A stretch of 64,000 nt of DNA. Source: Bacteroidaceae bacterium (lineage in GTDB: Bacteria; Bacteroidota; Bacteroidia; Bacteroidales; Bacteroidaceae). The notes under the pieces are model-generated. The model did not search any database. It was not told the DNA's origin and was given only the letters and a program-made list of their open reading frames with translations. The position numbers and the translations under genes are program-made. The stretch covers positions 3,013 to 67,012 of the forward strand of contig JAGBGU010000047.1 in assembly GCA_017935785.1 (NCBI GenBank). Reading direction: 5' to 3'. Below are positions 2,343 to 64,000 of this stretch, one piece after another; position 1 is the stretch's first letter; each line of letters begins with the position of its first letter.

Positions 2343-2346
2343 GATT

Positions 2347-5750: not shown

Positions 5751-5782
5751 AAGGGCTTGGCTGCGTGTTGCTCCAAGCCCTT
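5751..5782 (-). terminator. hairpin downstream of the receptor gene (possible bidirectional terminator)
   Basis: AAGGGCTTGG-N12-CCAAGCCCTT lies ~74 nt past the stop of 5856..9002. The T-run on the minus strand is not immediately adjacent, so support is moderate. Confidence 0.35.
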
Positions 5783-5855
5783 TGTCGGCATTTATCTCCT
5801 GCCCCATTGTCCTGAAAACCTTGCGAAGCGCCCCCAATGGAGCTTTCGGGATAGC

Positions 5856-10368: not shown

Positions 10369-10456
10369 GTAAACGGATTTACCCTTAAGTGTAAGTGGAT
10401 TTACATAGTGAGGTAAGTGCGTTTACATAGAACGGTAAATCCACTTACATAGTGAT
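10369..10456. repeat. four iteron-like 22-bp units, each starting with a GTAA-N6-TTAC palindromic site
   Basis: GTAAACGGATTTAC (10369), GTAAGTGGATTTAC (10391), GTAAGTGCGTTTAC (10413) and GTAAATCCACTTAC (10435) are spaced exactly 22 nt apart. Sites 2 and 4 are perfect reverse complements of each other. Confidence 0.85.
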
Positions 10457-10597
10457 GTAAAAATCGGCCGTCTGAAGAGCAACTTTTGCGGCAACATTAA
10501 GAAGCTGCTTAAATTTCTAAAAAGCTTTGTATTGGATAACCGTTTATTTCAAATCGCACACTTTATCAAAGTAAATTTTCTTTACAAAGTACATTCC

Positions 10598-10753
10598 CTA
10601 TAATTCAATCTCTTTAAAAAGATACATCGTCTCTCCCTTTTGAATGGCAAAACTTTCAAACAGCATCTTTGCTATTTGTTCAAAACGTTCTTCGATGTCA
10701 GATGCATTCATAGAGGCATCAAGAGTCATTAGCTGTCGGAGTTGTTCTATCAT
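10598..10753 (-). CDS. small hypothetical ORF (51 aa), possibly a gene fragment
   Basis: Hand-translated as MIEQLRQLMTLDASMNASDIEERFEQIAKMLFESFAIQKGETMYLFKEIEL*. It lies 29 nt downstream of the nuclease-like gene in the AT-rich islet and is too short for the ORF track. Confidence 0.25.
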   Translation of the reverse strand: MIEQLRQLMTLDASMNASDIEERFEQIAKMLFESFAIQKGETMYLFKEIEL

Positions 10754-10782
10754 TTGTATATTGTCATAATCTTAGTGTTACA

Positions 10783-11787: not shown

Positions 11788-12008
11788 AAACAGTATGTTT
11801 TATTATGAATTAAAAATACCTTGTCATTTCCCAACCTCATCCTGCGGCTTCTATGGCTTCTACTTCTCCTTTTGCTTCAAATTGAGCTAGTTACATAGTA
11901 CAGATAGGTAATTCTTGAAGTTTTCAATTTCATAGTCATCCCATTCGGGCTGTCCAAAGTCGACACTTACAAGCTCTCCATATCTATATTTGTTTTTCCA
12001 ACCTTTCC

Positions 12009-41874: not shown

Positions 41875-41945
41875 TGGGCTATGGTGTAATGGTAACACTG
41901 CAGATTCTGGTCCTGCCTTTCCTGGTTCGAGTCCGGGTAGCCCAA
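41875..41945 (+). tRNA. tRNA-Gln (anticodon CTG)
   Basis: Folded by hand into a 71-nt cloverleaf. Acceptor TGGGCTA/TAGCCCA has the U1-A72 pair typical of bacterial tRNA-Gln. D stem is GTGT/ACAC, anticodon stem GCAGA/CCTGC, loop TT-CTG-GT, and T arm CCTGG-TTCGAGT-CCGGG. Confidence 0.8.
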
Positions 41946-42002: not shown

Positions 42003-42073
42003 TGGGCTATGGTGTAATGGTAACACTGCAGATTCTGGTCCTGCCTTTCCTGGTTCGAGTCCGGGTAGCCCAA
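42003..42073 (+). tRNA. tRNA-Gln (anticodon CTG), identical second copy
   Basis: Identical 71-nt sequence, 57 nt downstream of the first copy. Confidence 0.8.
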
Positions 42074-49684: not shown

Positions 49685-49731
49685 ACCCTCGCAACAATCC
49701 TCACACGGATTTTGCGAGGGTTTTCTTTTTT
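49685..49731 (+). terminator. rho-independent terminator after fba; marks the core/island boundary
   Basis: AACCCTCGCAA-N16-TTGCGAGGGTT followed by ttcttttttg. Confidence 0.75.
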
Positions 49732-49750
49732 GTCAAGCCAAATAGGACTA

Positions 49751-49943
49751 AAGGGATGTCCTAAAAATTATGTCGTGTTGATTTACGTTCTATTTTCGTG
49801 TGTGCTTTTGTAAGTTGAAGAAGGAGCATAGCGGGCTATGTGACTGATGAGATTTGACAAAATGACACCATAAGAGACGAAAAGCGGCCGAAACCGAGAA
49901 CACCAGAATAGGTAAAAACTTAAATCCTGGATTTTTAGAACAT
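49751..49943. repeat. 193-bp repeat, copy 1 (direct repeat of 50981..51173), with ~9-bp terminal inverted repeats
   Basis: Near-identical blocks (ctaaaaattatgtcg..tcgtgtgtgcttttgtaagttgaagaa.gagcatagcgggctatgtgactgatgaga.ttgacaaaatgac..aaaagcggccgaaac.gagaaca.cagaat.g.taaaaacttaaatcc.g.atttttagaaca). Termini are CTAAAAAT / ATTTTTAG. Confidence 0.85.
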
Positions 49944-50015
49944 CTCTTATGCCTTTTAATGTTAAAAACACAAAAGAAAAGCACAACTATCAGTTGTATT
50001 ACAGAAATTATTTAC

Positions 50016-50023
50016 TAACTTTG
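50016..50023 (+). promoter_or_regulatory. Bacteroidetes -7 promoter box (TAACTTTG) upstream of the toxin-like gene
   Basis: Matches TAnnTTTG. It is only 11 nt before the ATG at 50034, so the real start may be ATG 50046 (MKFDRIL). Confidence 0.4.
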
Positions 50024-50033
50024 CAGCTGAAAC

Positions 50034-50597
50034 ATGGAATGCCATATGAAATTCGATAGAATTCTCGACAATAACACTTTATGGGCTGTACGATACAACG
50101 GAGCCAAGGACAATGCCCTTCAGACTTTGTTTGAACAATGGAGCGACCCAGAATGGTTGGTTGATTTCTTCATTAAAAACATCTCCGACCTTGCGTCATA
50201 CTTCAAGATTACAGACATCAACCAAGCCATCTATGATACGATTGAAGACAACCAAAGGATGCAATGTTTAATACTTGACATCTCTCCCGATGCTGATCTT
50301 GACCAACTTTTCAGACCTTTGGAGAATAGTCGGATTAATGAAATACTTCTTGGTAAGGAAAAAGCTAGGATTAAGAATCGCCCACAACACACATCATGGC
50401 TTCGTATCTATGCGATTAAACTTGAACCAGGATGTTACATAATCACTGGAGGCGCCATCAAACTGACCAGAACCATGCAGGAAAGGGAACATACGTTGGA
50501 AGAACTCAGAAAAATGGAAACCGTACGTCACTTCCTTTTGGAAAGTGGAGCGATAGACGCAGATGGATTTACAGATTTCTTATCAGAAATTCAATAA
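50034..50597 (+). CDS. hypothetical protein; putative RelE/HigB-like toxin core with a long N-terminal extension
   Basis: 187 aa. The C-terminal segment WLRIYAIKLEPGCYIITGGAIKLT resembles RelE/ParE-superfamily toxin cores. It lies directly upstream of an XRE-HTH gene, which is the HigBA gene order. Confidence 0.4.
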   Translation: MECHMKFDRILDNNTLWAVRYNGAKDNALQTLFEQWSDPEWLVDFFIKNISDLASYFKITDINQAIYDTIEDNQRMQCLILDISPDADLDQLFRPLENSRINEILLGKEKARIKNRPQHTSWLRIYAIKLEPGCYIITGGAIKLTRTMQEREHTLEELRKMETVRHFLLESGAIDADGFTDFLSEIQ

Positions 50598-50610
50598 AGG
50601 AAGAAACATT

Positions 50611-50952
50611 ATGAAACAAAAAACGCTTGAATTCCTTGAAACGCACAAGAGCGAAACTTCCTCAACCTGGAGGAAGGAAGCAGAATGGAGACGTGAAAAT
50701 TGGTCATGGCTCCGCCATTCCCAGATGATTGCTGTAAAGGTTCTGCTCCAGATGAAACTGCTTGGGCTGACACAAAAAGCGCTTGCAGATCGAATGAACT
50801 GTACGCAACAATATGTTTCAAAAATCCTGAAAGGACGGGAAAACATGTCTCTTGATACCCTATCCAAACTTGAGGATGCGCTTGGCATCAACCTGATTTA
50901 TGACGAGCAGACAACCTATCCAACCATAGTTGCGGAAGAAGAGCTTGTATAA
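50611..50952 (+). CDS. XRE-family helix-turn-helix protein (putative HigA-like antitoxin/regulator)
   Basis: Start at MKQKTLEF (ATG 50611). HTH segment: LGLTQKALADRMNCTQQYVSKILKGRENMSLDTLSKLEDALG. Confidence 0.7.
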   Translation: MKQKTLEFLETHKSETSSTWRKEAEWRRENWSWLRHSQMIAVKVLLQMKLLGLTQKALADRMNCTQQYVSKILKGRENMSLDTLSKLEDALGINLIYDEQTTYPTIVAEEELV

Positions 50953-50980
50953 TGTTTCTGGTCAAACTATATGTTGTTAT

Positions 50981-51173
50981 AAGGTATGTTCTAAAAATTA
51001 TGTCGAGTTGGTTTTCGTTCTTCTTTCGTGTGTGCTTTTGTAAGTTGAAGAAAGAGCATAGCGGGCTATGTGACTGATGAGACTTGACAAAATGACGCCG
51101 AAAAAGTCGAAAAGCGGCCGAAACGGAGAACATCAGAATCGATAAAAACTTAAATCCAGAATTTTTAGAACAT
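50981..51173. repeat. 193-bp repeat, copy 2
   Basis: See copy 1. Same orientation, 1230 nt downstream. Confidence 0.85.
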
Positions 51174-51294
51174 ACCATAAGTAATATCACTGCAAAGATT
51201 GCAGTTTATCCTTATAGAAAAATCTTTTTATAAAAAAGTTTTTTAACCCAAATCGGTCATTAGCACATAACAGAAAGAATCCGGGAATGAACAT

Positions 51295-52077
51295 TCACAC
51301 ATCCATGCCACCTTCTCTCATTTCTCGTTTAAGGCTTTCCACAAATGAAACATAAAAGATAAAATCATTAACAAACCAATCGCCACGTTCTTTGCACATA
51401 TCCAGCTCCATTCTCGACATCACAACCCCATCCCTGTTAAGAGTCCCAAATGTTGCCCAAACTGTAGCCCGATTAGCATTCAGTTCTACAACCTCAACTT
51501 TATGTAAATGTTGCGTAGAATGATCTTGACCATCGGTAAATGGGCAAACTGTTGGAGGATAATCGTTGCCACTGGCAAATTTTATGAAATCGCAAAACTC
51601 TTCGCTACAATATAGCGCAAAAAAATCACGTTCCGATTCTACATTATGCAAATAATTATGAGTTTCTAAAAAATCATCATATATACATTGAACTCGTTTT
51701 GCCAATTGTTTTTCCTCTTTATTTGAGTAGGACAAAATAACATCCGGTTTTGGGTATATAACAGTCATCATTAATGAATCAAATATATTGGTTTGCGTCC
51801 AATAATCCGAATCTGGCAAATTTACACAAAGACTTTCTGATAATTTATATACACTATCGATCAAAGGACCATAGTTGTACGATTCTTTCCATAAGATTGA
51901 ATCGTAATAAGCTTCATCATCATTAACTATTTCTATTATAGAATCCTTTACAGAAACAACTTCTGATGCCATCTGTTCATCATCAGATAAATGTATTTCA
52001 GATGTAGCATGTTGAGTTTGGTGCTGACAAGCATAACACAAAAAGGCCAACACATACAAAGTAATTACTATTTTCAT
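51295..52077 (-). CDS. hypothetical lipoprotein
   Basis: Start taken at MKIVITLYVLAFLCYAC (ATG 52077). AT-rich codon usage and no recognisable motif. Confidence 0.45.
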   Translation of the reverse strand: MKIVITLYVLAFLCYACQHQTQHATSEIHLSDDEQMASEVVSVKDSIIEIVNDDEAYYDSILWKESYNYGPLIDSVYKLSESLCVNLPDSDYWTQTNIFDSLMMTVIYPKPDVILSYSNKEEKQLAKRVQCIYDDFLETHNYLHNVESERDFFALYCSEEFCDFIKFASGNDYPPTVCPFTDGQDHSTQHLHKVEVVELNANRATVWATFGTLNRDGVVMSRMELDMCKERGDWFVNDFIFYVSFVESLKREMREGGMDV

Positions 52078-52177
52078 GTCAATGTTTATTGATCCTAAAT
52101 TCCGCAATACTTTAATTTAAACATCTTCATAAGTGCCATGTCAGTTTTTCACTGACCTTAGTGCTGCAAAAAAATCA

Positions 52178-52300
52178 ATGCAACTGAAAATCATCAACGA
52201 CAAAGCAAAGTTACAAATAATATCCGAAAAGCTCACACCTTTTGGCGGTATTTTCCCGATCATGGAGCAATTTGACTCCGCCATGTCATCAGTTATATGG
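52178..52300 (+). pseudogene. remnant of an IS transposase N-terminus (IS1380/IS4-like)
   Basis: MQLKIINDKAKLQIISEKLTPFGGIFPIMEQFDSAMSSVI resembles (from memory) the conserved N-terminus of Bacteroides DDE transposases (..KSEKLTPFGG..). The rest of ORF 52133..52465 runs antisense into the neighbouring gene, so only a fragment survives. Confidence 0.3.
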
Positions 52301-52348
52301 TTAATCTTTATGAGATTCGAGCAAGTTCCATACATTCCAAATTGGCAA

Positions 52349-53008
52349 TTACTTTGCCTCATAAATTCGGAAAGGCATTACCCACATCCCGTTATCCAAA
52401 TAAAACGAAGGAGCCATACTTTCGCTTCCTCTCCATTTGAATATATGATTTTTACTTTCTTCTAATGTCAGCAATGTTTCATATTTATTGAATTCATCCA
52501 AATTGACTTTTACATTATCAAAAAGAAAAAAATAGTTTCCTGCTTTCAATGAAAAGTCATACCCGGTAGTCAGCCACCATTCATGCTGCTCTTGGGGATT
52601 AGTTCTGAATCTCCATGGTTTGAATTTATCTATATCAATAGGATTGGGATTCCCCACCTCATACAAAGAAATCCTAACATATCCTTTTCCCGTCTTTGTT
52701 TCTGAAAAATGAATGGTTTGCAGAAAGTGGTCACATTCGCAACCATACGCCTTTCCTGTAGATTCTTTCAAAACTTTCGGGAAGTCATCCAGTTCACGTG
52801 TAAGAAGAACTTTATCTTCATCTGAACGATAGAACAGATGTATTGCCTCAAACATGAAGGGCTTGTTGAATATTTTGGGCGGGATATTATATAGGATTCC
52901 ATCTATTGGATATGGGAACAACTCAACTGTTGCAGTCTTTCTCTCATATTTATCGGTCTTCCAATTATACGGAAGATTTTCTTTTTCTTTATACTTCATG
53001 TTAACCAA
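52349..53008 (-). CDS. hypothetical protein, translationally coupled to the radical-SAM maturase
   Basis: 219 aa with no TM and no signal peptide. Its start overlaps the maturase stop by 8 nt. Confidence 0.5.
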   Translation of the reverse strand: MVNMKYKEKENLPYNWKTDKYERKTATVELFPYPIDGILYNIPPKIFNKPFMFEAIHLFYRSDEDKVLLTRELDDFPKVLKESTGKAYGCECDHFLQTIHFSETKTGKGYVRISLYEVGNPNPIDIDKFKPWRFRTNPQEQHEWWLTTGYDFSLKAGNYFFLFDNVKVNLDEFNKYETLLTLEESKNHIFKWRGSESMAPSFYLDNGMWVMPFRIYEAK

Positions 53009-54113
53009 TGGAGCAATTATTTGTTTCTGTATGGGTTATTATTCTTTTTGCTGCAGCAAGCTCCAGATATTCCTCCTGACTAATCTCTGCTACATCTTTC
53101 CTTAAAATTTGTTTTATTCTGTAATAACTTAGAGCTTCTTTTTCTGCCATTATAAAAGGGCACAACCTCTTGTCTCTTTTTCCAATAGAACCTCTCTCAA
53201 TAAAATTATTCCCATAGCATGTTGGACAAATATTGTGGATCAAACACTTTTTACATGAGACGTCATCGTAAAGGGAGTCTTCATTTTCAAAATCCAGATT
53301 TGAGATATCATTCCAACGTTTTTTATCAAGCGTGTTGGGGATAAACATTTGGCACGGATATGCATTACCTTCGACATCAAACGCCATCATGTTTTTTCCT
53401 GTTCCGCAATGTCTGACTATAATATCCTTCTCCAATATAGGGGTAAGATGTTTACTGAAAATCGGTATTGTCTCCACATCTGGGTTTTGTAGGTAGAAAT
53501 CAGCTAATTTAAATAACTCATTGCGATAGGTTTCCACTTGTGTATTTTCCCATTCTAATCCGTAAGCTAAATTTGCATTAACTTTTAGCCCATATGAATG
53601 AATATACTTCACACCTTCAGCAAAGCCAGAAAGAGTTTCTTTCGAGACTGTCATTTTTACTGGTTGTTCCGGCCACAAATCACAAAAGAAGCGAATTGTA
53701 TCCTCAGACAATCTTGTTCCTCTGTTTTGATAGTTCATTTCCAATGTTCCATCCAAACTCAAGGCTGCAGCAAAACGTTTTTTGTTTTCTGTTAACCATT
53801 CTTTTACTTCTTGAGTCAATATAGTTCCATTGGTGGTGGCAAAGAACTTTATCGTATACGAGGGAAATTCATTCCAGCACCATTCGCACAATTCTCGGAT
53901 TAATTGAAAGTTCATAAATGGTTCTCCACCATGAAAATCAATCTCCAAATCTTCATTCCCATGTAGTTTTATTCTCTCCCTTATAATTCGTTGTGCAGTG
54001 GAAATGTGCATACGCCGCAAATCTTTACTTCCTTCATAGCAATATATACACTTCAAATTACATTGGTTTGTAATGGTCAGCATTAAACAAAATCGTTTCA
54101 TAATAAATAGCAA
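53001..54113 (-). CDS. radical SAM / SPASM-domain peptide maturase
   Basis: 370 aa with the N-terminal CxxxCxxC motif (TNQCNLKCIYCYEG). The C-terminal auxiliary-cluster region has HCGTGKNMMAFDVEGNAYPCQMF and CKKCLIHNICPTCYGNNF (Cx2Cx5Cx2C), then RLCPF. Confidence 0.8.
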   Translation of the reverse strand: MLFIMKRFCLMLTITNQCNLKCIYCYEGSKDLRRMHISTAQRIIRERIKLHGNEDLEIDFHGGEPFMNFQLIRELCEWCWNEFPSYTIKFFATTNGTILTQEVKEWLTENKKRFAAALSLDGTLEMNYQNRGTRLSEDTIRFFCDLWPEQPVKMTVSKETLSGFAEGVKYIHSYGLKVNANLAYGLEWENTQVETYRNELFKLADFYLQNPDVETIPIFSKHLTPILEKDIIVRHCGTGKNMMAFDVEGNAYPCQMFIPNTLDKKRWNDISNLDFENEDSLYDDVSCKKCLIHNICPTCYGNNFIERGSIGKRDKRLCPFIMAEKEALSYYRIKQILRKDVAEISQEEYLELAAAKRIITHTETNNCSIG

Positions 54114-54179
54114 TTTAGGATTTCTTTGTTTAAGTTATCCGAAAAATGGCCCAGAACAGTCTGAACAATTATCGGAATC

Positions 54180-54347
54180 TTAAGAGTCAATCATAGCCAT
54201 TGTCCCTTTGCAAAAATTGCATTCATCGCCGCCAGAAGTATAAGCACAACCACTTTCTGGATGTAAAGTTTCGTTCTTTTCCTGTACGTCATCTACAGCC
54301 CCGTATTTAATTCCCAAATCATCCAATACTTTATTCAATTTTTCCAT
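54180..54347 (-). CDS. candidate RiPP precursor peptide 2 (55 aa, not in ORF track)
   Basis: Hand-translated as MEKLNKVLDDLGIKYGAVDDVQEKNETLHPESGCAYTSGGDECNFCKGTMAMIDS*. It shares leader and core motifs with the peptide at 54440..54604. Confidence 0.55.
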   Translation of the reverse strand: MEKLNKVLDDLGIKYGAVDDVQEKNETLHPESGCAYTSGGDECNFCKGTMAMIDS

Positions 54348-54392
54348 ATCCTCAATATAAGTATTAATACGACAAACACTTTAAACTTAAAA

Positions 54393-54432
54393 CTGGTGTT
54401 GTGCCAAATTCCAAAAAGAAGCACAACACCAG
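54393..54432 (-). terminator. 12-bp perfect hairpin + T-run between the two precursor genes (possible attenuator/partial terminator)
   Basis: On the minus strand: CTGGTGTTGTGC-16 nt-GCACAACACCAG followed by TTTTAAGTTT. It starts 8 nt after the stop of precursor 1. Confidence 0.6.
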
Positions 54433-54439
54433 TAATTAA

Positions 54440-54604
54440 TTATCCAAACATGCCACCTTTACAACGTTCGCATTCATCGTCACCAAACATTGCTCCGGTA
54501 CATTTGTCGCATGGAGAATAATTAGCTTTCACAGAACCTAAAACCTCATTTACTTTGCCATACTTTCCTTCAAGCAAATTCAATGTCAAATTTAAGTCTT
54601 TCAT
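54440..54604 (-). CDS. candidate RiPP precursor peptide 1 (54 aa, not in ORF track)
   Basis: Hand-translated as MKDLNLTLNLLEGKYGKVNEVLGSVKANYSPCDKCTGAMFGDDECERCKGGMFG*. Confidence 0.55.
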   Translation of the reverse strand: MKDLNLTLNLLEGKYGKVNEVLGSVKANYSPCDKCTGAMFGDDECERCKGGMFG

Positions 54605-54667
54605 GATTGTATTGTTTAAAAGTTTCTCCTACTCTATTTAGGCTTTTCGGATTCCGCCATATAATGT

Positions 54668-55411
54668 TTATTTTCCTGTTCTTAATGCTGTTATTTCATT
54701 CTTTACACGTGAAATATCCGCAGATGCATCAACGCCATATTTCTGAGACTCTTGATAATACAGGATTGACCGGGAGAGCATGGTAACAGCCCATTCATTC
54801 ACTTTTTTTTGGTTCTTCTTTCTCGACACATCCGGCACATCCTGTGCAAATTTCTCAAATTCACTGGCTGCCTGATACAACAATGTAGCTTGTGCCTTTA
54901 CTGCTTTCTTCAATTGTTCTTCCTGGGCACTTAACTGTTGTCCTTGTTGTTCAATGGTTGACTTCTGTTCTGTGATAGTCGTATTCTGACTTTCGATTAT
55001 TTCCTTAAGTGAATTGATTTCCGCTTCTTTTTCTTTAATAATTGTCTTCAGGTTTGCCACAATTTTCTTATAAGCACTATCGTTTCCTATCTGCTTTTCT
55101 AAGGTTGAAATCTTATTTTTGATGGCCTTGATGTTATTACTTATTTGTTCTGCTTGCGTTACGCGCGCTGTACCATTTTCAATGTCCCCGCGCAATACCA
55201 TTGTACTTCCTGATATTTGGGCCAACTCGCTAAGCGTTTTGTTTATGGTTGCTGCTTGATTCAAATTTGACTGTTGAGTGGCATCAAGTGATTCTTTCAG
55301 TTCTTTATATTCATTGTATATTTCGTCATATTCCTCTTGGGGAACACCTCCACCGCAAGACCATAACAATCCTGCCAATACTAACAAACTTATTACTTTG
55401 TTAATTCGCAT
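54668..55411 (-). CDS. coiled-coil lipoprotein
   Basis: 247 aa with the lipoprotein signal MRINKVISLLVLAGLLWSCGG. The rest is Q/E/K-rich with heptad character. Its start overlaps the upstream gene by 19 nt. Confidence 0.6.
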   Translation of the reverse strand: MRINKVISLLVLAGLLWSCGGGVPQEEYDEIYNEYKELKESLDATQQSNLNQAATINKTLSELAQISGSTMVLRGDIENGTARVTQAEQISNNIKAIKNKISTLEKQIGNDSAYKKIVANLKTIIKEKEAEINSLKEIIESQNTTITEQKSTIEQQGQQLSAQEEQLKKAVKAQATLLYQAASEFEKFAQDVPDVSRKKNQKKVNEWAVTMLSRSILYYQESQKYGVDASADISRVKNEITALRTGK

Positions 55412-56682
55412 ATTCTTTCTCCTTGTTTAAATGTTAATGTTATTTTATCTAATTTCTCATTATATGTGATTTCTCCTTTCCCCAGTTGTTCTGATTCTAT
55501 ACTTCCACTCGCATCCAGCGAAAATTCATATATTTCCGGACCATATTCGGAAACCACCAATATCCGAGCTTGAATATCTGATGTTTTCTTTATGGCAGCA
55601 GTACGAATACCGTTAACTAAGACACCGGCATTCTTTTCGCGTAGTGTATAATTACCCTCAAGTCGACTTATCGCAGTGGAAAGATTCACCTCTGTTTTTA
55701 CAGGTTCCCCAACATTCTTATTATTACTATCAGATTTGCCGAAAGTAAAATAAAGGAATGCCATTAATATAGCAGCACCTACCCATGTATACCATTGTTT
55801 GTACCATGGGGTTCCTTTTGTCTTGGAACCTCCCGCATTTGGCAATGGATTCTCTATTGGCGTCTGTCTTTCATCTTCCGTGGATGATGTGGGAGGCAAA
55901 ATAGGAGTTGATTCTATAGAGGGCTTTAGACTGATTTCAAATGTTGTTTTATATAAACAATTTTCACCTTCATAGAATTCCACTCTCCAGGTACCAGATG
56001 CCTCATAACAGTTTTTGTCCGTGTTTCCAAAACCGTCTAAAATTGCTGTTTGCTTCACCATTGTGCTACATTGAACACTTCCTTTCCAAGTGAACCCTGT
56101 TTTAGAACCTTCTATTGAAAGCAACTCACCTTCAGGAGAATAAATCTTATACCAAATATCTATAGGATCTCCTGTCCGAAGAACTTGATACGTAATTTGT
56201 GGAATCAAATACTCTACATCAGTATAAAGTTTACTGCCAAAATTTCTTATGGTATTTCCGTTTCTATCTGAGTCTCCAAATTTTACATCTATAATTTCAA
56301 TAGCTGCATTTTTTATTATAACAAAATGTTTAAGTGAACCATGTTCGTCTTCTTGTAACAATGTTTCTATAAAATCTTTGTATTTAGATTCGTCAACTAC
56401 CATTATTCTTTTAGCAAACAGACTCGCAGCGTCTTTAACATCTAATTTTTCGCCAGAAGCATTGTACTCTTGGGTTACTTCTATCAGTTTATTACAAGTA
56501 TCCTCAATATCCTCTCTTTTAGGAAAATCAGCTGACAATTGATTAATTATCTCACTTACAAGTTGATTTATGTCGGAATATGTGTTTTTATTTTCTTCTG
56601 AACTTGAAATGATTTTTGCCAAAAAATCTAGGTCCTTTATACATTGTCTTACTTTTAACTTTAGTACATCTTCAACAGCCAT
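55393..56682 (-). CDS. single-pass membrane protein, unknown function
   Basis: 429 aa. One TM segment (WYTWVGAAILMAFLYFTFG, around aa 300) sits between a ~290-aa N-terminal domain and a ~110-aa C-terminal domain. Confidence 0.55.
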   Translation of the reverse strand: MAVEDVLKLKVRQCIKDLDFLAKIISSSEENKNTYSDINQLVSEIINQLSADFPKREDIEDTCNKLIEVTQEYNASGEKLDVKDAASLFAKRIMVVDESKYKDFIETLLQEDEHGSLKHFVIIKNAAIEIIDVKFGDSDRNGNTIRNFGSKLYTDVEYLIPQITYQVLRTGDPIDIWYKIYSPEGELLSIEGSKTGFTWKGSVQCSTMVKQTAILDGFGNTDKNCYEASGTWRVEFYEGENCLYKTTFEISLKPSIESTPILPPTSSTEDERQTPIENPLPNAGGSKTKGTPWYKQWYTWVGAAILMAFLYFTFGKSDSNNKNVGEPVKTEVNLSTAISRLEGNYTLREKNAGVLVNGIRTAAIKKTSDIQARILVVSEYGPEIYEFSLDASGSIESEQLGKGEITYNEKLDKITLTFKQGERICELTK

Positions 56683-56713
56683 AATCGTAAGTTTTTAGGT
56701 GCTAATTAATAGC

Positions 56714-58228
56714 TTATACTCTTTTCGTTTCTAATTCTTTTCGCATATTTTCTATTTCTTGCTCGGAATACATGCCTTTGTACTTTATAATAAAATCAAC
56801 TCGTTTTCCTTGACACTCTCCCCAAATCCGTACTGTGCTATCAGAACTTCTTGAAACATGTACTATTACGGGAGTGCCTTTTTCTACGGGAAACCCCCAA
56901 ACTAGTTTCTTTTCATCCACTAATGTACATTTACCCAAATCTATTGCATCTTTTTCACTTATGTTTTCATATATTGCCACAAGAACTTCTGTCTGCCCAT
57001 CACTAATTGTGCAGAAATTATGTGTACCTTGGTATATCATATCATCTGTTCTTTTTATAACATTGGCTACATATCTTTTATCTTCCGCATTATCGTAACA
57101 ACGGACGCCATATGAACGACTTGCCAAATCAGTACCAATGAAAACTTTAGGAGAAGTGTTACCAACTAACTTGGCAGCATGAAGAGCTGCACCTTTAGCG
57201 ACAGCTCTATCTGGCTCGAGATTATCCAATCGAATAGGGCACGAAAACTCTCGCTGTAACCTTTTCTTTACCATTGGCATATATGACGATCCTCCAACCA
57301 ATATTACTTCATCAATTTTCACGTTTGGTTCACGAGATATTTTTATTGCGTGATGTATTATATCAACCGTTTTCTCTAATAATTCTGATGTTAGTTCTTC
57401 AAAAACATCCCTACTGATTTCTGTAATATATTGTTTGCGTTTGTACACCAATTTGAAAGATGCTTTTTCGCTTTTAGACAGATTTTTTTTGCAATTTTCT
57501 GCTGCTAAAAGCATTTTCCCTGATTCTCGTTCCTCTTTTATGTCTTCGTATGTAACATCCAAATTGTTTCTCATAAAAACATAATCAAGCAGAGATGTGT
57601 CCCAGTCTACACCACCAAGATGATGGTCTCCATTGGTTGAGAGGGTATTAAGTTCTCCGTTTTTCATCCTCATGATACTCACATCAAATGTTCCTCCTCC
57701 CAAGTCATATATTAGGAAAGTTTTTCCTTCTAATCCATTAGTACCATAGGACAATGCTGCCGCCGTGGGTTCGTTCAATAAATCCAAAACCTCTAAACCA
57801 GCAATTCTACCTGCTTGTTTTGTCAATTCACATTCCATATTCCCAAAATATGCAGGAACCGTGATTACGGCTTTGTGGATAGGAGGGAGACCGTCATAAC
57901 TTCTTTGTTCATTAGCATCATCTACAACCTTTTTTAGAATTAAAGCTGAAACATCAACTGGAGATATTTTTTTTCCGTCAATGGTTCTATTGAAATCTTT
58001 ATTAGACATTTCGCGCTTTATAAATGCAACTATTCTGTCCACCTCTACAGACATTCCACTTTTGGCTTCTTTGCCTACATAATATTCATTCCCTTCATCA
58101 TAAAAAACGACTGATGGTGTAGTGAACTCATCATCTAAATTTTTAATTACTTGAGGCAAACCATCTTCACCAATTGTTGCGATACAAGAATTGGTAGTAC
58201 CTAAATCTATTCCAAAAACTGCGTCCAT
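56714..58228 (-). CDS. Hsp70-family ATPase, non-canonical (NBD + beta-sandwich SBD, no helical lid)
   Basis: 504 aa with Hsp70/actin-fold motifs FGIDLGTTNSCIA, DLGGGTFDVS and VILVGGSSYMPMV. The SBD-like part has DLASRSYGV and VIKRTD...VLVAIYEN. The protein ends right after the beta domain. Confidence 0.85.
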   Translation of the reverse strand: MDAVFGIDLGTTNSCIATIGEDGLPQVIKNLDDEFTTPSVVFYDEGNEYYVGKEAKSGMSVEVDRIVAFIKREMSNKDFNRTIDGKKISPVDVSALILKKVVDDANEQRSYDGLPPIHKAVITVPAYFGNMECELTKQAGRIAGLEVLDLLNEPTAAALSYGTNGLEGKTFLIYDLGGGTFDVSIMRMKNGELNTLSTNGDHHLGGVDWDTSLLDYVFMRNNLDVTYEDIKEERESGKMLLAAENCKKNLSKSEKASFKLVYKRKQYITEISRDVFEELTSELLEKTVDIIHHAIKISREPNVKIDEVILVGGSSYMPMVKKRLQREFSCPIRLDNLEPDRAVAKGAALHAAKLVGNTSPKVFIGTDLASRSYGVRCYDNAEDKRYVANVIKRTDDMIYQGTHNFCTISDGQTEVLVAIYENISEKDAIDLGKCTLVDEKKLVWGFPVEKGTPVIVHVSRSSDSTVRIWGECQGKRVDFIIKYKGMYSEQEIENMRKELETKRV

Positions 58229-58234
58229 ATTTTT

Positions 58235-59155
58235 TTAATCTTCTTCGTTTTCTTTATATTCCAATTTCACTATTTCTTCAGGCCTAACGACATATGAGAA
58301 TAATTGGGGAACATTATTATCTTCCAATATTTTGCCCAATTGCACTTCTGAATTTATTACAAGATATGGTATACTCCATTCATATCCAGGAGAAACAGTT
58401 TTGTAAGTGTTATGTTCCTCTACAATATTAGTTTCCTCTTTATTTACCAAAACTTGTCTTTTACGATTCATTGTAGTTGAATCCAGGTCAACATCTTGAA
58501 ATTTTCTAACGGAATTATTGTTCAACGAGGCATCTACCCACTTCTCTAAGTCCTTTACAGCACCAAGTAAATCATAGTCAGTATCCGTTTCTGAATTTTG
58601 TATAATCATCCGAATGTTATCCGCAATTCCTATCAATTCCATAATGAGACTTTTCTGTGTCTTATAAATCACATCTTCTTGAAATTTCAACGCTGCATTA
58701 TGTTGTTTCTGTATAGTTCTTTCCTGTGCTTCTAACACATTCCCTACCTTATCTTGCAAAAAAAGCAAAACATTTTGAATAGTTTCATTTTGATGATGAT
58801 TAAAATTTATTTCGCCAATCAATTGATGTAGCGAAGATATATTAGTAGCAATTGGTGATACTATTTCCTTTATTTCCGGTAAAACAGTTTTATACAATTC
58901 ATGTTGAATATTATCAACCAACTGATAGATTAGTTTCTCATTTAGGCTATAACCTTCCGTTAGATTATTTAAAGTTCCTTTTGAGATTCCCTTTTGGGGA
59001 GTTTCCTCTTTGTTTTGAATGTTTTCTTGTTTATCATTTTCTTGAACGATTCCTTGCCTCCCAATAGTACAATGTGATTCCTTAGGAGTAGGAATAGATT
59101 GCGATGTGTCGTTTGATTCCGCACCTCTAAATAGATTCGTTAATATATTACTCAT
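58235..59155 (-). CDS. hypothetical protein, possible divergent GrpE-like nucleotide exchange factor
   Basis: 306 aa. A central helical region has LIMELIGIADNIRMI (compare GrpE LLPVLDNLERAL) and a C-terminal small beta domain ends ..VVRPEEIVKLEY (compare GrpE RPAMVVV). It lies 6 nt upstream of the Hsp70 gene. The call is weak and motif-level only. Confidence 0.35.
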   Translation of the reverse strand: MSNILTNLFRGAESNDTSQSIPTPKESHCTIGRQGIVQENDKQENIQNKEETPQKGISKGTLNNLTEGYSLNEKLIYQLVDNIQHELYKTVLPEIKEIVSPIATNISSLHQLIGEINFNHHQNETIQNVLLFLQDKVGNVLEAQERTIQKQHNAALKFQEDVIYKTQKSLIMELIGIADNIRMIIQNSETDTDYDLLGAVKDLEKWVDASLNNNSVRKFQDVDLDSTTMNRKRQVLVNKEETNIVEEHNTYKTVSPGYEWSIPYLVINSEVQLGKILEDNNVPQLFSYVVRPEEIVKLEYKENEED

Positions 59156-59159
59156 ATTA

Positions 59160-60092
59160 CTAATATTTTATTCCATTATTCCAGATTTCATTTTCATAAG
59201 AACCATCTTTCTTGTAATGTAAACACTTACCATCAGGCCCATTCATTGTCATATACCCAATAATACATGACCCATCCTGCAAATAATACACTCCGGTTCC
59301 CTGTTGCAACAAACCATTCGAGAAACGGGCACAAAGTCGTTCTCCGTTCGGGAAAAACAAGGTACCGAGACCATGCATCTTACCATTTTTCCATTCCCCA
59401 GAATAACGTATGCCATCTGTTTGTATTGTAGTCCCTATGCCATTTTTACGATTGAAGTTCCATTCTCCTACGTATTTACTATTTACAGAGTTTACTTCCA
59501 TTCCAACACCATTTCTCATATCTAACTTCCACTCTCCTACATAGTAGCTTTCGTCTTCATTTTTACAAATACCAAATCCAGAACGTTCGTTATCCACGCT
59601 AATATCTCCACAATATTTTATACCATTCATTTCCTTAAAAGATAATTCTCCTGCTTTACATGTAGAACTTTCTAAACTTTCGATTTCCCTCTTCAATGAC
59701 TGATTTTGCGAAGTAAGTCTTTGTACTTTATCTACAAGACCTTGGTTCTCTTCCTTCGCTGTAGCCAATTCTTCGGTTGTTTTATCAACTTGATCTCTAT
59801 AACGTTCTTTTTCTTGTTCCTGTGCTCTTGTCTTTGCCTTTTCTTCTTTAAGGTTATCCTCTAAAGTTTTATTTTTAGAGACTTCGGCTTCATAATTCTT
59901 TTTGAACCTTTCAACCCCCTGATTATGTTCTTCCCACACCTTTTTGCATGCCTTAATGCGTTTTTCTTCATATATCCTTACTTCGTTTGAAACAGGTTCT
60001 GGAAGAATATGATGCTCGAAACCGCATTTGGGACAGAAAGAATCTGATAGGTTTAAATCTCCTCCACAAACTTTACATTTATCCATTGACAT
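59160..60092 (-). CDS. zinc-ribbon / coiled-coil / MORN-repeat protein
   Basis: 310 aa. The N-terminus has CKVCGG..N10..CPKCG, followed by a ~110-aa charged coiled coil. There are 4-5 MORN-type repeats (YVGEWKLDMRNGVG, YVGEWNFNRKNGIG, YSGEWKNGKMHGLG). Confidence 0.75.
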   Translation of the reverse strand: MSMDKCKVCGGDLNLSDSFCPKCGFEHHILPEPVSNEVRIYEEKRIKACKKVWEEHNQGVERFKKNYEAEVSKNKTLEDNLKEEKAKTRAQEQEKERYRDQVDKTTEELATAKEENQGLVDKVQRLTSQNQSLKREIESLESSTCKAGELSFKEMNGIKYCGDISVDNERSGFGICKNEDESYYVGEWKLDMRNGVGMEVNSVNSKYVGEWNFNRKNGIGTTIQTDGIRYSGEWKNGKMHGLGTLFFPNGERLCARFSNGLLQQGTGVYYLQDGSCIIGYMTMNGPDGKCLHYKKDGSYENEIWNNGIKY

Positions 60093-60113
60093 AATAGTTG
60101 TATTTATTTGTTC

Positions 60114-63100
60114 TTAAATTTCCAATTGTGCAAACAATTGTCGTATATCAGTTATCAGGCGAACTTGAACTTGTTCAAAACCGCCCTGTAAAAGACCTAT
60201 CACTTGATAGTTGTCCTGACGGACGACAGGGCCTCCGCTATTTCCATGCGTGGCGTTTATATCCGACATATAAGTATCAAAGCTTCTGTCGTTATTTTGC
60301 TTGTTTGCTTCATAATTAGTGATTTCACCAGAGTTGACCATCAGATTACGGGATACGGCTTCTCCCAAAGGGTATCCTGCCAATGTAATCTTCGTGGTTT
60401 TTCCTACGGGTTTCTCATCTTTACATAATTGTAGATAACGGGCTTCCTGTGGCAATATACCCACTTGAAGCAATGCCATATCGTATTGGGGATTGTTCCA
60501 CAGCAGGCGTGCAGTCGTTTCAAACTGAAGTTCACTAATACTAAAGGTAAACTTAGTTTTCCCTTCCACCACATGACTGCATGTAAGCAGATAATGGTTA
60601 TGAAGTGAAATGATGAACGCTGTTCCTTGGGCCTTTTCTGAATTGGTTCCACCCTCACAAGTCAGTAATCCAACAGAATGTTCAAGGTGCTCAACGCATG
60701 TTGCCCTATGTGCTTCGTCCTCCTTTGTCAAATCCAAAGAGACCATAGGCTGCTCAGCACCGTTTCCGGATGCTTCTACCCTATCCTCCAACGATTGTCC
60801 TTCGGAACCTTTGTGCAAATTCAAAACCTCATAGGCTGCTTTTGGGAAATCCTCAGGTCTGTATTCATTCATAAGATCAGTGGATTCATTATTCGCAGCA
60901 CGCAATCGTTTGTCATTATTCTGTTCCAAAATGCCTAACAATTTTTCACTTTCGCTGGCATTGCCGAACTTATTGGTACGAGGAATCAAACCAAACCAAG
61001 CTAAAGCCAATTGGTGACATAATTCCTCGTCAACAAAATGTCGTTTCAGCCTTCTCATGTTAAACTGCAGAATTTGCCATAGCTCTTCATTTGAATAATT
61101 GTCGAATTGGATTATATGTTTCACCCTGCGCGTCATACCGTCATTCATACTTAAAAACTGGGACATATCATCAGGATAACCGGCCAAAACAAGCGCCATT
61201 TTTCGTTTATATCTTTCATCGGTCAGCAATCCTACAATTTGGGTTACTACACTTTTATTGTTATTTTCACAAAGAGCGTATGCTTCATCGATGAATAGAG
61301 TTTTTCCCACATTGTCAGCAAACAATTTTTCAACATTCTTTTCTGTTCCACCTGCGAAATTATCAACAATGTCTCCCTTCTTTTTTTCTACACAATCACC
61401 GCTCGTCAGTAAGCCCAAGTCATGAAGAATACCGCCCAGCATTCTGGCCACTGTGGTTTTACCCGTTCCAGGAGAACCGGCAAAAACGAACACCAAGTCT
61501 TCTTCTTCAACAGGCAGGCCGGCATTCATTCTAAGTCGGTCACGCCTCATTTTGTAATAGATTTCTTTCAGTTTCTCTTTTACATTTCTCAAGCCGATAA
61601 GTTCATGGAGATTTTGAAGCACTTCTTCATCTGTTTTCTCTTTAGTGTCAATCATCTTGCTGAACATTTCCGGAATATGCGAAAGTTCCAATGTTCCATT
61701 GTTTTTTTTGTAAAATTCCTTGTAGATTTGAGCTGCAAGTTGCTCCATTTCTCTGGCATTACCCCAAGTACGAAGATTACGTTGGGCAAACATTACTTCT
61801 ACGAGCATACGTATAGCATTGCTGAATTCATCAGTCTTTGGATACGTCAGTTTGCGATTCAACATTTTTAGCAGTTCAGATGGTTCATAGTCGTCAAACA
61901 TGATAAGTTGGTCATCGTTGATTCGGCTCCGAAGGCCTGGATTACTATTCGTCAGAAGATCCTCCATCTCATGCTTATAACCAGCCAATACCAACATAAA
62001 GTCTGGTTTTGTCATATATTGTATCAAGACTTCAACAGCCTCGGCCGCATAGTTTGCGCCATGCCCTGTTTTATCTTCACGCAATCCATAAGCTTCATCA
62101 ATGAAAAGCATGCCCCCTTTGGCCCTTTCACATAAAGCTTGTGCCTTAATACGTGTTTCTCCGACGTATTGGCCGACAATGTCACCTACTGTCGCCGAGA
62201 TAAATGTTCCCTTACTCAGTACATTTTCTTCGCGGAACCATTGGGCTACCAGTCTTGCTACAGTTGTTTTGCCCGTCCCCGGATTTCCCATAAATACCAT
62301 ATGAGGGTACACCGGTATTGCACTATGTCCTGTTTCTTCCTTTTGTCGACGAGTGTTAACAATAAGATTCTTAAGACTTTCTATCTTATCCAGAACTTTT
62401 CCAATCCCGTCCATTTGTCTTAATTGGGACAAAGCATTATCTGCGCTGACTGTACTTACCAAATGATTCATGTCTAATCTGTTTAAGTTTATTATCAGTC
62501 TGTCATCCATCTTGGCAAAATCAAGTCCACCGTCTTTACCAAACACTTTAAAATTCCCCATGGCAACACTTCGTCTTAACAAGCCAAAAGGCTTTGGCGA
62601 TAACGTACAATCAACATTCTCACAGATACGTTTTCGGATAAGCCAATTTGCGATTTCGTCTTCTTGCGGCAAGTCTATGCAAAACAGGTTCTTTTCAAAA
62701 TTAACCATGTTCACATCACGTTCTGTATAGTTTTGTTGGCTTGAAGGCGCCAAGCCAAAACGAGTAGCAAAAGAGTTTCTAAAAAACACTCCACCTTGTC
62801 CACCATGTTCATGGTCAAATGCCGCTGCCAATTGTCCGTTCGTCTTGAATCCGAAAAGCACAATCATCTTTAGCTGCCGGTTTTCCTCACCATACACCTT
62901 TGACAACTCGCTGAATTTATTTTCAACTTGTGCAGGGTTTTCTGGAAGTATGTTTTCCGGATTTTCAAATATAACCGCCATTCGTTCATGGGGATTATTG
63001 TCAGAAAAACCTATCACGTCATCAAAAACAGTCAAAGAAGATTGTCTTTTAAAAAAGGTGTTCAAACCATTCTTATGTATATATATCTGAGGATAATGGC

Positions 63101-63593
63101 AGACCAACGAAGTGGAATTACCGTCATGTGACGCGTCGGATGAAGAACCATGGGTTGGGCTTAAAGGCGGTCTGCCGCCTTTCGTATTATTTACTTGATT
63201 TCGGGCTCCAAACCGAGGCTTCATTGCCCCCATCGGGGTCTTTATCTTTGGCACGTAAGATGTGTGTTCACCTTGACGCACATAACTACCGCTTGTCTGC
63301 AAGTTCTCATTTGTTTGTGCCTGATTTGTTTTTGGTGAGTGTGAAGCATTTGTAAAACCTGAAAATACAGCCAAGTCTTCTTCTGTATAGCTGTAAAATC
63401 CGATATTATCAGTCGGATTGTAGAAAACCACACGGTATCCTTCTCCCTTCAGGTATAAGAAAAGAGCCTTTGATATGTTATAGCGACAAAGATCGCCATC
63501 TATAAAATACTCTGAATTACGCGTATTTCCATAGATTCCCGAGAGCAAGCCTCGGTGAGAAACATTGAAATCTGATATACGTCTTACAGCCAT
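60114..63593 (-). CDS. giant fusion protein: unknown N-terminal ~400 aa + two SpoVK/CbxX-type AAA+ modules + C-terminal trypsin-like (S1) serine protease domain
   Basis: 1159 aa. AAA-1 has GNPGTGKTTVARLVAQWF and GMLFIDEAYGL..VLAGY. AAA-2 has GSPGTGKTTVARMLGGIL and TLFIDEAYAL..VLAGY. The protease triad context is LLTCSHVV (His), YDMALLQV (Asp) and THGNSGGPV (Ser). Confidence 0.8.
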   Translation of the reverse strand: MAVRRISDFNVSHRGLLSGIYGNTRNSEYFIDGDLCRYNISKALFLYLKGEGYRVVFYNPTDNIGFYSYTEEDLAVFSGFTNASHSPKTNQAQTNENLQTSGSYVRQGEHTSYVPKIKTPMGAMKPRFGARNQVNNTKGGRPPLSPTHGSSSDASHDGNSTSLVCHYPQIYIHKNGLNTFFKRQSSLTVFDDVIGFSDNNPHERMAVIFENPENILPENPAQVENKFSELSKVYGEENRQLKMIVLFGFKTNGQLAAAFDHEHGGQGGVFFRNSFATRFGLAPSSQQNYTERDVNMVNFEKNLFCIDLPQEDEIANWLIRKRICENVDCTLSPKPFGLLRRSVAMGNFKVFGKDGGLDFAKMDDRLIINLNRLDMNHLVSTVSADNALSQLRQMDGIGKVLDKIESLKNLIVNTRRQKEETGHSAIPVYPHMVFMGNPGTGKTTVARLVAQWFREENVLSKGTFISATVGDIVGQYVGETRIKAQALCERAKGGMLFIDEAYGLREDKTGHGANYAAEAVEVLIQYMTKPDFMLVLAGYKHEMEDLLTNSNPGLRSRINDDQLIMFDDYEPSELLKMLNRKLTYPKTDEFSNAIRMLVEVMFAQRNLRTWGNAREMEQLAAQIYKEFYKKNNGTLELSHIPEMFSKMIDTKEKTDEEVLQNLHELIGLRNVKEKLKEIYYKMRRDRLRMNAGLPVEEEDLVFVFAGSPGTGKTTVARMLGGILHDLGLLTSGDCVEKKKGDIVDNFAGGTEKNVEKLFADNVGKTLFIDEAYALCENNNKSVVTQIVGLLTDERYKRKMALVLAGYPDDMSQFLSMNDGMTRRVKHIIQFDNYSNEELWQILQFNMRRLKRHFVDEELCHQLALAWFGLIPRTNKFGNASESEKLLGILEQNNDKRLRAANNESTDLMNEYRPEDFPKAAYEVLNLHKGSEGQSLEDRVEASGNGAEQPMVSLDLTKEDEAHRATCVEHLEHSVGLLTCEGGTNSEKAQGTAFIISLHNHYLLTCSHVVEGKTKFTFSISELQFETTARLLWNNPQYDMALLQVGILPQEARYLQLCKDEKPVGKTTKITLAGYPLGEAVSRNLMVNSGEITNYEANKQNNDRSFDTYMSDINATHGNSGGPVVRQDNYQVIGLLQGGFEQVQVRLITDIRQLFAQLEI

Positions 63594-63612
63594 GATTTAT
63601 TCTGTTTAAAAC

Positions 63613-64000
63613 CTAAAGAGAACCACGAAGCTGATTGGCAGCACCGCGTTTTCGCATTTGCTGTCCTGACTGCATTTGGGGTATTACCTCATTGCCTCCA
63701 TTGGCAGGAGTCGTTATCGGACCTGGATCATAGCCGCTCCTACGCATTTCCTGACGTATGCGTTCAATACTCTGGCGCAATTGTTGTTCAGTAATCGCTT
63801 GGTAGGGATTATCTACATGTATGGCAATATCGTTTGATTTCTCATCCGGATTAGGCTGTAACACAACCGTAATCTCCTCGCCGGTATTAGGATGACGAAG
63901 AATGGCAAAAACACCCTCTCGTTGGTCACTTTCTATTTGGCCTCCCATATAGTCGAAATCGTCATTACCATTTTCAACCTTTATCTCATATCCCTGCCGA
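63613..64000 (-). CDS. hypothetical protein, first visible gene of the operon; reading frame open to the window edge
   Basis: The ORF track gives 111 aa from the Met at 63948. The frame upstream (..RQGYEIKVENGNDDFDY-MGGQIESD..) has no stop up to position 64000, so the true start may lie outside the window. Confidence 0.45.
   Translation of the reverse strand, partial: RQGYEIKVENGNDDFDYMGGQIESDQREGVFAILRHPNTGEEITVVLQPNPDEKSNDIAIHVDNPYQAITEQQLRQSIERIRQEMRRSGYDPGPITTPANGGNEVIPQMQSGQQMRKRGAANQLRGSL

Follow-up and report, generated by a model that had tools for sequence, protein, structure and literature searches.

We analysed a 64,000-nt stretch of DNA from a Bacteroidaceae metagenome-assembled genome (contig JAGBGU010000047.1; in the following called the window) and found on its minus strand a group of four open reading frames (ORFs), encoding two short cysteine-rich peptides (pepA and pepB), a radical S-adenosylmethionine (SAM)/SPASM enzyme and a 216-aa protein. 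The 54-aa peptide pepA and the enzyme constitute an evolutionarily fixed pair, and we consider it fairly probable that the locus is a minimal module of precursor and maturase for a peptide made on the ribosome and modified after translation (RiPP), of the thioether type. The thioether chemistry is suggested by the relatedness of the enzyme to thioether maturases. The system represents an uncharacterised and unmodelled family with a classical architecture, and modified-peptide systems of this kind are well known. The features of the locus, in the direction of transcription, are the following.

54626..54660, minus strand: Rfam DUF805b RNA element in the 5′ leader (48.9 bits, gathering threshold 35.6)
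54440..54604, minus strand: pepA, 54-aa putative precursor peptide, kept 5′ of the maturase gene in 7/7 close lineages
54388..54438, minus strand: stem-loop, putative attenuator or mRNA-stabilising hairpin (−24.6 kcal/mol, z = −6.4)
54180..54347, minus strand: pepB, 55-aa paralogous putative precursor (hhalign against the pepA family, E 1.8e-13)
54149..54166, minus strand: weak terminator-like hairpin after pepB (pattern scan; folding z = −1.3)
53001..54101, minus strand: predicted radical SAM/SPASM peptide maturase, 366 aa, without a RiPP recognition element (RRE) at the N-terminus (Pfam, NCBIfam, AlphaFold2, Foldseek)
52349..52999, minus strand: 216-aa beta-rich protein, facultative neighbour, probably not part of the core module (no family match)

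A preliminary description of this DNA had given the coordinates of all four ORFs and the peptide sequences correctly. It had called the cluster unannotated, which is true only functionally: the GenBank record already calls all four genes, three of them as hypothetical proteins (MBP3373988.1, MBP3373987.1 and MBP3373985.1) and the enzyme as a “4Fe-4S cluster-binding domain-containing protein” (MBP3373986.1), in each case with no function given. The enzyme ORF extends over 53001-54113 if a TTG start is used, but the likely start is the ATG at 54101, yielding 366 aa. Similarly, the last ORF spans 52349-53008 and 219 aa from a TTG, with a likely ATG start at 52999 that yields 216 aa. This ATG lies 1 nt past the enzyme stop codon (TAA-C-ATG); the two genes therefore abut and do not overlap as had been described.

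Conservation of the peptide–enzyme pair

A pepA-type ORF is located directly upstream of the enzyme gene, on the same strand, in 7/7 close lineages with enzyme identities of 48–100%. This count covers the close enzyme homologues whose genomic context could be fetched. Designating loci outside the window by L numbers, the pairs are distributed as follows.

Window, L001-4 and L090: enzyme identity 90–100%, pepA-type ORF upstream
L114-115 and L125-127: enzyme identity 76%, pepA-type ORF upstream
L116-117: enzyme identity 72%, pepA-type ORF upstream
L121-124 (Bacteroides cellulosilyticus GCA_019128935.1): enzyme identity 55%, pepA-type ORF upstream
L118-119: enzyme identity 54%, pepA-type ORF upstream
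L120 (Tannerella): enzyme identity 48%, pepA-type ORF upstream

The preliminary description had named a lack of conservation of the small ORFs beside homologous maturases as the main argument that could be raised against it; in all seven close lineages the small ORF is kept. Four more peptide clusters match maturase clusters in the size of their longest contig, which suggests shared contigs. A metagenome scan with the enzyme yielded a single additional close locus, L090, and the GTDB representative genomes held no relative above 41% identity. A phage-borne module was ruled out, as viral contigs hold no relative above 37% identity. Enzyme relatives at 33–41% identity occur in many phyla, where they lie beside other Cys-rich peptides of the CxxxC-repeat and CxCxxxC types. 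A tblastn search with pepA and pepB in 80 GTDB loci whose maturase homologues are distant (≤41% identity) returned no matches; these loci have other types of Cys-rich peptide in their place.

One relative joins the leader to another core. The Rikenellaceae cluster L133 has a 44%-identical enzyme and a peptide with the retained leader motif (LNAKLAELEAKFG) and a different core, and a YcaO gene is added. Such constancy of the leader across differing cores is a RiPP signature. The cluster, at positions 2886-6650 of L133, comprises the YcaO gene, a 48-aa peptide with a CNNCDGHC core, the radical SAM/SPASM gene and a MORN-like 181-aa protein, and is a hybrid YcaO and radical SAM relative of the window system.

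The pepA leader reads MKDLNLTLNLLEGKYGKVNEVLGSVKANYSP and the core CDKCTGAMFGDDECERCKGGMFG, in which two C-x-x-C-x-G-x-M-F-G repeats are separated by DDE. Across the family, the pepA-type core is a tandem C-x-x-C-x-G-x-M-[FY]-G unit with the linker G-D-[DE]-x. A profile of 16 pepA-type sequences shows L8, L11 and G16 of the leader as invariant, together with C32, C35, T36, D43, C45, C48, G50 and G54 of the core. pepA is a real coding gene under strong purifying selection, because dN/dS between lineages is only 0.04–0.24 (nonsynonymous differences per site, pN, 0.07–0.3) despite near-saturated synonymous sites (pS 0.5–0.9). The family is small; a collection of 5.8 billion sequences contains 22 of its clusters at 90% identity, and one of 1.84 billion contains 12 representatives at 50% identity.

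The second peptide, pepB, has a leader of the pepA type and a core, ESGCAYTSGGDECNFCKGTMAMIDS, with only three Cys. Pairwise, pepA and pepB are 38% identical over 52 aa, and hhalign of the 16 pepA-type against 6 pepB-type sequences gave a probability of 98% (E 1.8e-13). The paralogy of the two peptides, with common leader and core, had been proposed from inspection and is thus beyond chance. Peptides of the pepB type are confined to the window lineage (L001-4 and L090; peptides P0245, P0301, P0302, P0304 and P0307) and hold three Cys at most; one or two of the four Cys are missing in pepB and several relatives, with further losses in some. Thus, pepB is a true but degenerating paralogue of pepA. 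As had been remarked before, the leaders are not of a known GG type. Neither peptide matched an NCBIfam family, and Pfam yielded only a sub-threshold EGF domain for pepA.

The enzyme, a proposed mechanism and alternatives to it

The enzyme carries the CX3CX2C motif CNLKCIYC at residues 14–21. Nine cysteines never vary among 38 relatives (C14, C18, C21, C232, C250, C283, C292, C295, C314), and C286 is almost invariant. It has the full seven-Cys SPASM motif, with the spacing C232-x12-G-x4-C250, C283-x2-C286-x5-C292-x2-C295 and C314 kept across the family. Pfam assigned the domains Radical_SAM (E 1e-10) and Fer4_12; the Pfam SPASM model did not match at E ≤ 0.01.

The best NCBIfam model is that of PapB (NF047865), which covers near the whole enzyme (profile positions 4-327 of 330) and scores 140.3 bits against a cutoff of 340. 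It is followed by the CXXX-repeat maturases (TIGR04115; 110.9 bits, cutoff 350) and the SCIFF maturases (TIGR03974; 88 bits, cutoff 425, the alignment limited to the radical SAM core). Lower scores were obtained for the cyclophane families YhhB (NF041707; 54 bits, cutoff 445) and AmcB (NF041718; 38 bits, cutoff 425) and for the anaerobic sulfatase maturases (anSME; TIGR03942; 53 bits, cutoff 349). All 38 relatives score highest on the PapB and CXXX-repeat models (best PapB E-value 1.7e-49), and none of them reaches the CXXX-repeat cutoff of 350 bits. By this score ranking, kept in the 38 relatives, the enzyme belongs to an unmodelled family nearest to the thioether-forming maturases and is not of the anSME type. 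The anSME alternative had been raised in the preliminary description; the models nearest to the enzyme are PapB and the CXXX-repeat maturases, the nearest fold is that of CteB, and a scan of island genes revealed no sulfatase.

The AlphaFold2 model of the enzyme (pLDDT 93.9) opens straight with beta-strand 1 of the barrel and superposes on the folds of CteB and anSME. Its closest fold in the PDB is CteB (5wgg; Foldseek E 1e-16, TM 0.69), followed by anSME, ChlB, TigE and SuiB. The enzyme lacks an N-terminal RRE, because CX3CX2C begins at residue 14, the model starts at strand 1 and CteB aligns to it only from CteB residue 99. RREs are not universal among radical SAM/SPASM thioether RiPP systems. 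As a discrete RRE, the only candidate at the locus is the 216-aa protein, which is not conserved and gave no match resembling a winged helix-turn-helix.

Based on these features, we propose the following mechanism. The conserved unit consists of a leader RNA, the precursor gene, a hairpin and the maturase gene, the precursor having been duplicated in the window lineage. To bind the precursor, the enzyme would contact L-x-x-L-E-x-[KR]-[YF]-G, the conserved helical motif of the leader, with a non-RRE surface; RRE-less SPASM enzymes such as ChlB bind their leader in this manner. As is the case for CteB, which also has seven Cys, a core Cys may then ligate auxiliary cluster I at its open site, and the 5′-deoxyadenosyl radical would take a hydrogen from the side-chain carbon of the acceptor. 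Candidate acceptors are the invariant Asp43 (a Cys-Xn-Asp linkage of the PapB type), the invariant Thr36 (CteB type) and the C-terminal residue. Closure of the intramolecular thioether by the Cys sulfur would give up to four cross-links in pepA, with a mass change of −2 Da for each, and a smaller number in pepB. By means of the hairpin that follows pepA, the precursor transcript may be kept above that of the enzyme. Because the module has no dedicated protease or exporter, the product may stay intracellular, like the SCIFF peptides, or be handled by unlinked factors. The absence of a transporter or peptidase had been pointed out before and holds for the conserved module; an AAA-trypsin protein ~6 kb upstream is not co-conserved.

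Several points weigh against this interpretation. The earlier proposal of precursors with a thioether-forming maturase stands as far as the pairing and the position outside the anSME clade are concerned, but for none of the curated families of thioether maturases does the enzyme reach the cutoff (best 140 versus 340 bits). The core has CxxC spacing, with neither the Cys-X3-Asp repeats of PapA nor the CXXX repeats of TIGR04115, and a metal site could just as well be built from its two CxxCxG knuckles. A three-residue cyclophane, too, would be compatible with the conserved [FYW]-G-D motif. The loss of cysteines in relatives of pepB implies that not all Cys are essential, and the lack of a conserved protease, exporter or immunity gene leaves a secreted bioactive product unsupported.

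A bolder proposal, which we regard as tentative and rather doubtful, is that the pepA family forms a new structural class of RiPPs. Here, the RRE-less SPASM enzyme would staple the twin CxxCxG knuckle into a compact fold by several thioethers or by thioether and cyclophane together. The product, acting intracellularly or at the envelope, would be a signal or conflict factor that belongs to hypervariable Bacteroidales islands. Such a role would account for the recurring MORN-repeat, Hsp70-like, kinase, von Willebrand factor A (vWA) and ubiquitin-like-conjugation neighbours, the absence of an exporter and the shared leader element.

The same pair could also perform a different chemistry, which we consider unlikely: a C–C cyclophane at aromatic-Gly-Asp as in triceptides, an epimerisation or an ether, with the Cys residues serving as cluster ligands or in a structural or metal-binding role. 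In the pepA-type peptides, [FYW]-G-D is indeed conserved before the third Cys, and an aromatic residue lies two positions from the C-terminus. With an E of 6e-12, the fold of the window enzyme is well matched by ChlB (9gm3), a cyclophane synthase that is also an RRE-less SPASM enzyme of similar size (its mechanism is cited in PMC12912966), and the YhhB and AmcB models match the enzyme weakly. However, these cyclophane models score far lower (54 and 38 bits) than those of PapB (140) and the CXXX-repeat maturases (111), and the top fold match of the enzyme is the thioether synthase CteB. Moreover, no core residues of the pepA type are better conserved than the four Cys, and the neighbouring peptides of distant relatives are all Cys-rich and not aromatic-rich.

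The 216-aa protein had been described as coupled to the system and as devoid of recognisable motifs. The latter was borne out, with no match in Pfam, NCBIfam, PADLOC or PHROGs; its AlphaFold2 model is beta-rich (pLDDT 67) and has no fold match in the PDB. An assignment as enzyme or RRE was rejected because the four libraries gave no hit, the model is weak and no similar fold was found. That it is nevertheless integral to the module, be it as a discrete leader-binding element in place of the RRE, as a second tailoring enzyme or as an immunity protein, appears quite improbable. In the window lineage its ATG directly follows the stop codon of the maturase gene, L125-127 likewise have a homologue (58% identity) behind the maturase, and in L005-9 a further homologue shares a cluster with four other radical SAM genes. 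On the other hand, it follows the maturase in only 2/6 lineages with a visible downstream gene, being absent in L114, L116, L118 and L121; ~60%-identical homologues occur in runs of small hypothetical genes of mobile elements with no radical SAM gene nearby (L128-132), and no RRE-like or enzyme-like fold or family was matched. Because of this patchy occurrence behind the maturase and the homologues found elsewhere without such an enzyme, the 216-aa protein is probably a facultative island neighbour, and a core role is unlikely. The coupling that had been described is limited to two lineages and lacking in four.

The L005-L009 loci (positions 1-9700) are a separate multi-radical-SAM cluster. 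There, the ~60%-identical homologue ends a conjugative-element-like cargo of human-gut Bacteroidales mobile elements, beside a tyrosine integrase; the cargo includes four radical SAM genes, three of them MiaB-like, together with M42 and S9 peptidases and a leucine-rich-repeat protein.

It is very unlikely that the small proteins are Cys4 metal-binding mini-proteins of the zinc-knuckle or rubredoxin kind, acting as electron donor or partner of the enzyme or unrelated to it, and not as substrates. Two CxxCxG knuckles nine residues apart are a classic metal-binding arrangement, and the core is unusually conserved for a RiPP while the leader is more variable (between window and L121, pN is 0.43 in the leader and 0.08 in the core). 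The absence of a protease or exporter is also in keeping with a mini-protein. Yet neither peptide matched the Pfam models of the DnaJ-type CxxCxGxG zinc finger, rubredoxin or zinc ribbon, the only signal being the sub-threshold EGF domain of pepA. The Cys4 site is broken in pepB and several relatives, with three or two of the four Cys left. Furthermore, the architecture of leader and core, with the leader motif kept beside a different core in L133, follows the RiPP pattern, and the relatives of the enzyme are peptide maturases.

Hardly plausible is, finally, a maturase acting on another, larger substrate nearby, such as a MORN-repeat protein, with the small ORFs being incidental: genes for MORN-repeat proteins lie immediately upstream of the enzyme family in L037, L040, L044, L054 and L075 and nearby in L115, L118, L120 and the window (59160-60092), but in L037, L044 and L075, where the downstream side was examined, the enzyme gene is closely followed by a small Cys-rich ORF, no MORN gene adjoins the enzyme in B. 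cellulosilyticus or L125-127, and the sole universally conserved partner is the peptide. With a Cys-rich ORF still beside the enzyme in the MORN-adjacent loci, the MORN protein was set aside as an unlikely substrate. At five loci a MORN protein of ~195 aa ends 17–47 nt before the enzyme gene.

RNA elements and genomic surroundings

The DUF805b element (RF02914) upstream of pepA scores above the gathering threshold of its Rfam model (E 7e-11). It lies 21 nt before the pepA ATG and 8 nt past the stop codon of the upstream lipoprotein gene. An element of this type is found 19–22 nt before the precursor ORF also in L001, L003, L090, L114-116, L121-122 and L125-126 (38–48 bits), and L118 has a weaker copy. 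Its stem covaries (CG:7 / AU:5 at one pair). With a model of our own, we detected the element in front of three other precursor types beside radical SAM genes, in L015, L023 and L043. At L015 (10182-11608), 3 kb from the maturase homologue, it precedes a 30-aa peptide (MKDFEIISIPLNAQECEVSSRCCPGEYIGV), a terminator-like hairpin and a radical SAM/SPASM enzyme; this second cluster is unrelated, and its enzyme has an N-terminal extension of ~90 residues.

DUF805b motifs are named after genes for DUF805 membrane proteins. In its short stem and conserved loop, the copy in front of pepA agrees with the Rfam DUF805b motif, but it precedes a gene for a small Cys-rich peptide. An exact-pattern scan of IMG/VR phage contigs returned 83 DUF805b-type matches (L135-L217) with unrelated genes behind them. 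Most of these copies are near-identical, reside in contigs of ~100 kb and head a structured leader of ~105 nt before an ORF, while others are found 20–24 nt ahead of XRE-type helix-turn-helix (HTH) or membrane-protein genes. In view of the 83 phage copies before unrelated genes or long leaders, a dedicated regulator of radical SAM RiPP precursors was dropped, and the element is best read as a general 5′ leader element or expression signal shared by Bacteroidales and phages.

Immediately past the pepA stop codon follows a stem-loop, CUGGUGUUGUGC...GCACAACACCAG, then UUUUAAGUUU. None of 200 shuffled sequences folded as stably. Hairpins that differ in sequence occupy the same spot after the precursor gene in L090, L114, L118, L121, L125 and L133, and we regard the structure as a putative attenuator or mRNA-stabilising element, in agreement with a device commonly used to hold precursor transcripts above those of the enzyme. 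Folding of the hairpin after pepB is not significant.

The cluster is embedded in a low-GC island, in which the GC content is ~36% from ~49.7 kb to the end of the window, compared with ~52% before. In this island (~49700-64000), six genes of one orientation encode a fusion of a double-AAA+ ATPase with a trypsin-like protease (1159 aa; 60114-63593), the zinc-ribbon/coiled-coil/MORN protein at 59160-60092, a 306-aa protein of unknown function (58235-59155), a member of the Hsp70 family (56714-58228), a membrane protein of 429 aa (55393-56682) and a lipoprotein with a coiled coil (54668-55411). The island yielded no PADLOC system match; with domain-level matches only, a known defence system was rejected. 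We also considered a DnaJ/Hsp70 link, suggested by the likeness of CxxCxG to the zinc finger of DnaJ and by the Hsp70-family gene 2 kb upstream. The DnaJ models miss the peptides, and the link was ruled out by strains L001-4, in which identical peptide and enzyme genes are accompanied by vWA and Ser/Thr kinase genes in place of the island set.

The C-terminal 180 residues of the 429-aa protein (minus strand) are 80% identical to the C-terminus of the kinase-domain protein of L001-4 (L001, 2453-3982). The shared part consists of a linker, a transmembrane helix and, past the latter, a domain of ~120 aa, and the cytoplasmic head is swapped on this common membrane-anchored module. At the edge of the low-GC island, beside a fructose-bisphosphate aldolase gene, a 193-nt direct repeat with 90% identity (49751-49943 and 50981-51173) flanks a two-gene unit (50034-50952) encoding a 187-aa unknown protein and an XRE-type HTH protein. 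Elsewhere in the window, the GC content drops to 36.5% at 10001-12000, within a region of 55–60% and around an ORF at 10783-11787, which suggests another small acquired segment. Two tRNA genes (41875-41945 and 42003-42073) have identical Rfam scores, lie 128 nt apart and are probably a tandem duplicate.

Comparison with known systems

Few RiPPs of Bacteroidales have been characterised experimentally (PMC10352776). B. cellulosilyticus is unmentioned in that survey, and the radical SAM cluster detailed there has its CX3CX2C motif at residue 80, in contrast to residue 14 in the window enzyme. Two large census strategies for radical SAM RiPPs select on association with an RRE or on a neighbouring ABC transporter (PMC10288494). 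The pepA family falls through both filters because it has neither.

Among the known systems, the thioether-forming PapB of the freyrasin (ranthipeptide) pathway provides the best curated model and, like the window system, combines a radical SAM/SPASM enzyme with an adjacent Cys-rich precursor in which acidic residues are kept near Cys (here the invariant Asp43). PapB links Cys to Asp/Glu as well as Cys to the C-terminal residue and is active independently of the leader (PMC9413430, PMC12373016, PMC12715619). It differs by an N-terminal RRE at residues 1-85, which is dispensable in vitro (PMC12715619), and by its host, Paenibacillus instead of Bacteroidales. Its substrate PapA has six CSANDA (Cys-X3-Asp) repeats, whereas the window core contains two CxxCxG units, lacks Cys-X3-Asp and has a nearest Cys-to-Asp spacing of 7. 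The enzyme stays far below the PapB cutoff.

The CXXX-repeat maturases align from profile position 6, their model appears to be devoid of an N-terminal RRE as well, and peptides with CxxxC repeats adjoin the 33–41% relatives of the window enzyme. The window peptides, however, have CxxC and not CXXX, and the score places the enzyme outside this family. To our knowledge, the chemistry of the products of TIGR04115 has not been established.

CteB, the maturase of thermocellin and a representative of the SCIFF systems, is the closest solved structure and shares the seven-Cys SPASM domain. As in the window, the SCIFF systems are minimal two-gene modules in which the Cys-rich core is highly conserved and a dedicated exporter or protease is lacking. 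CteB joins Cys to Thr, and an invariant Thr follows the second Cys here. The sequence identity to CteB is 23%, the SCIFF model is missed by a wide interval, CteB carries an RRE of ~95 residues that the window enzyme lacks, and the Cys pattern and clostridial distribution of SCIFF peptides are unlike those of the window system.

The ChlB-type cyclophane synthases (triceptides) resemble the window enzyme as RRE-less SPASM proteins of ~370 aa that still recognise a leader. They differ in forming C–C cyclophanes on aromatic-X-X motifs of substrates that are not Cys-rich, and the cyclophane families reach only 38–54 bits against cutoffs of 425–445; yet the window core carries the conserved [FYW]-G-D.

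If the cross-links are ordinary Cys-Asp or Cys-Thr thioethers, the pepA system would be one more ranthipeptide family, and nothing in our analysis points to unusual biology beyond the cross-link pattern. The module is tiny, with a 54-aa peptide, a 366-aa enzyme and a well-defined core, and it is present in a B. cellulosilyticus assembly, so that a new cross-link pattern could be defined. PapB is already under development as a macrocyclisation catalyst, and the family described here may yield a compact, leader-light peptide-stapling enzyme related to it.

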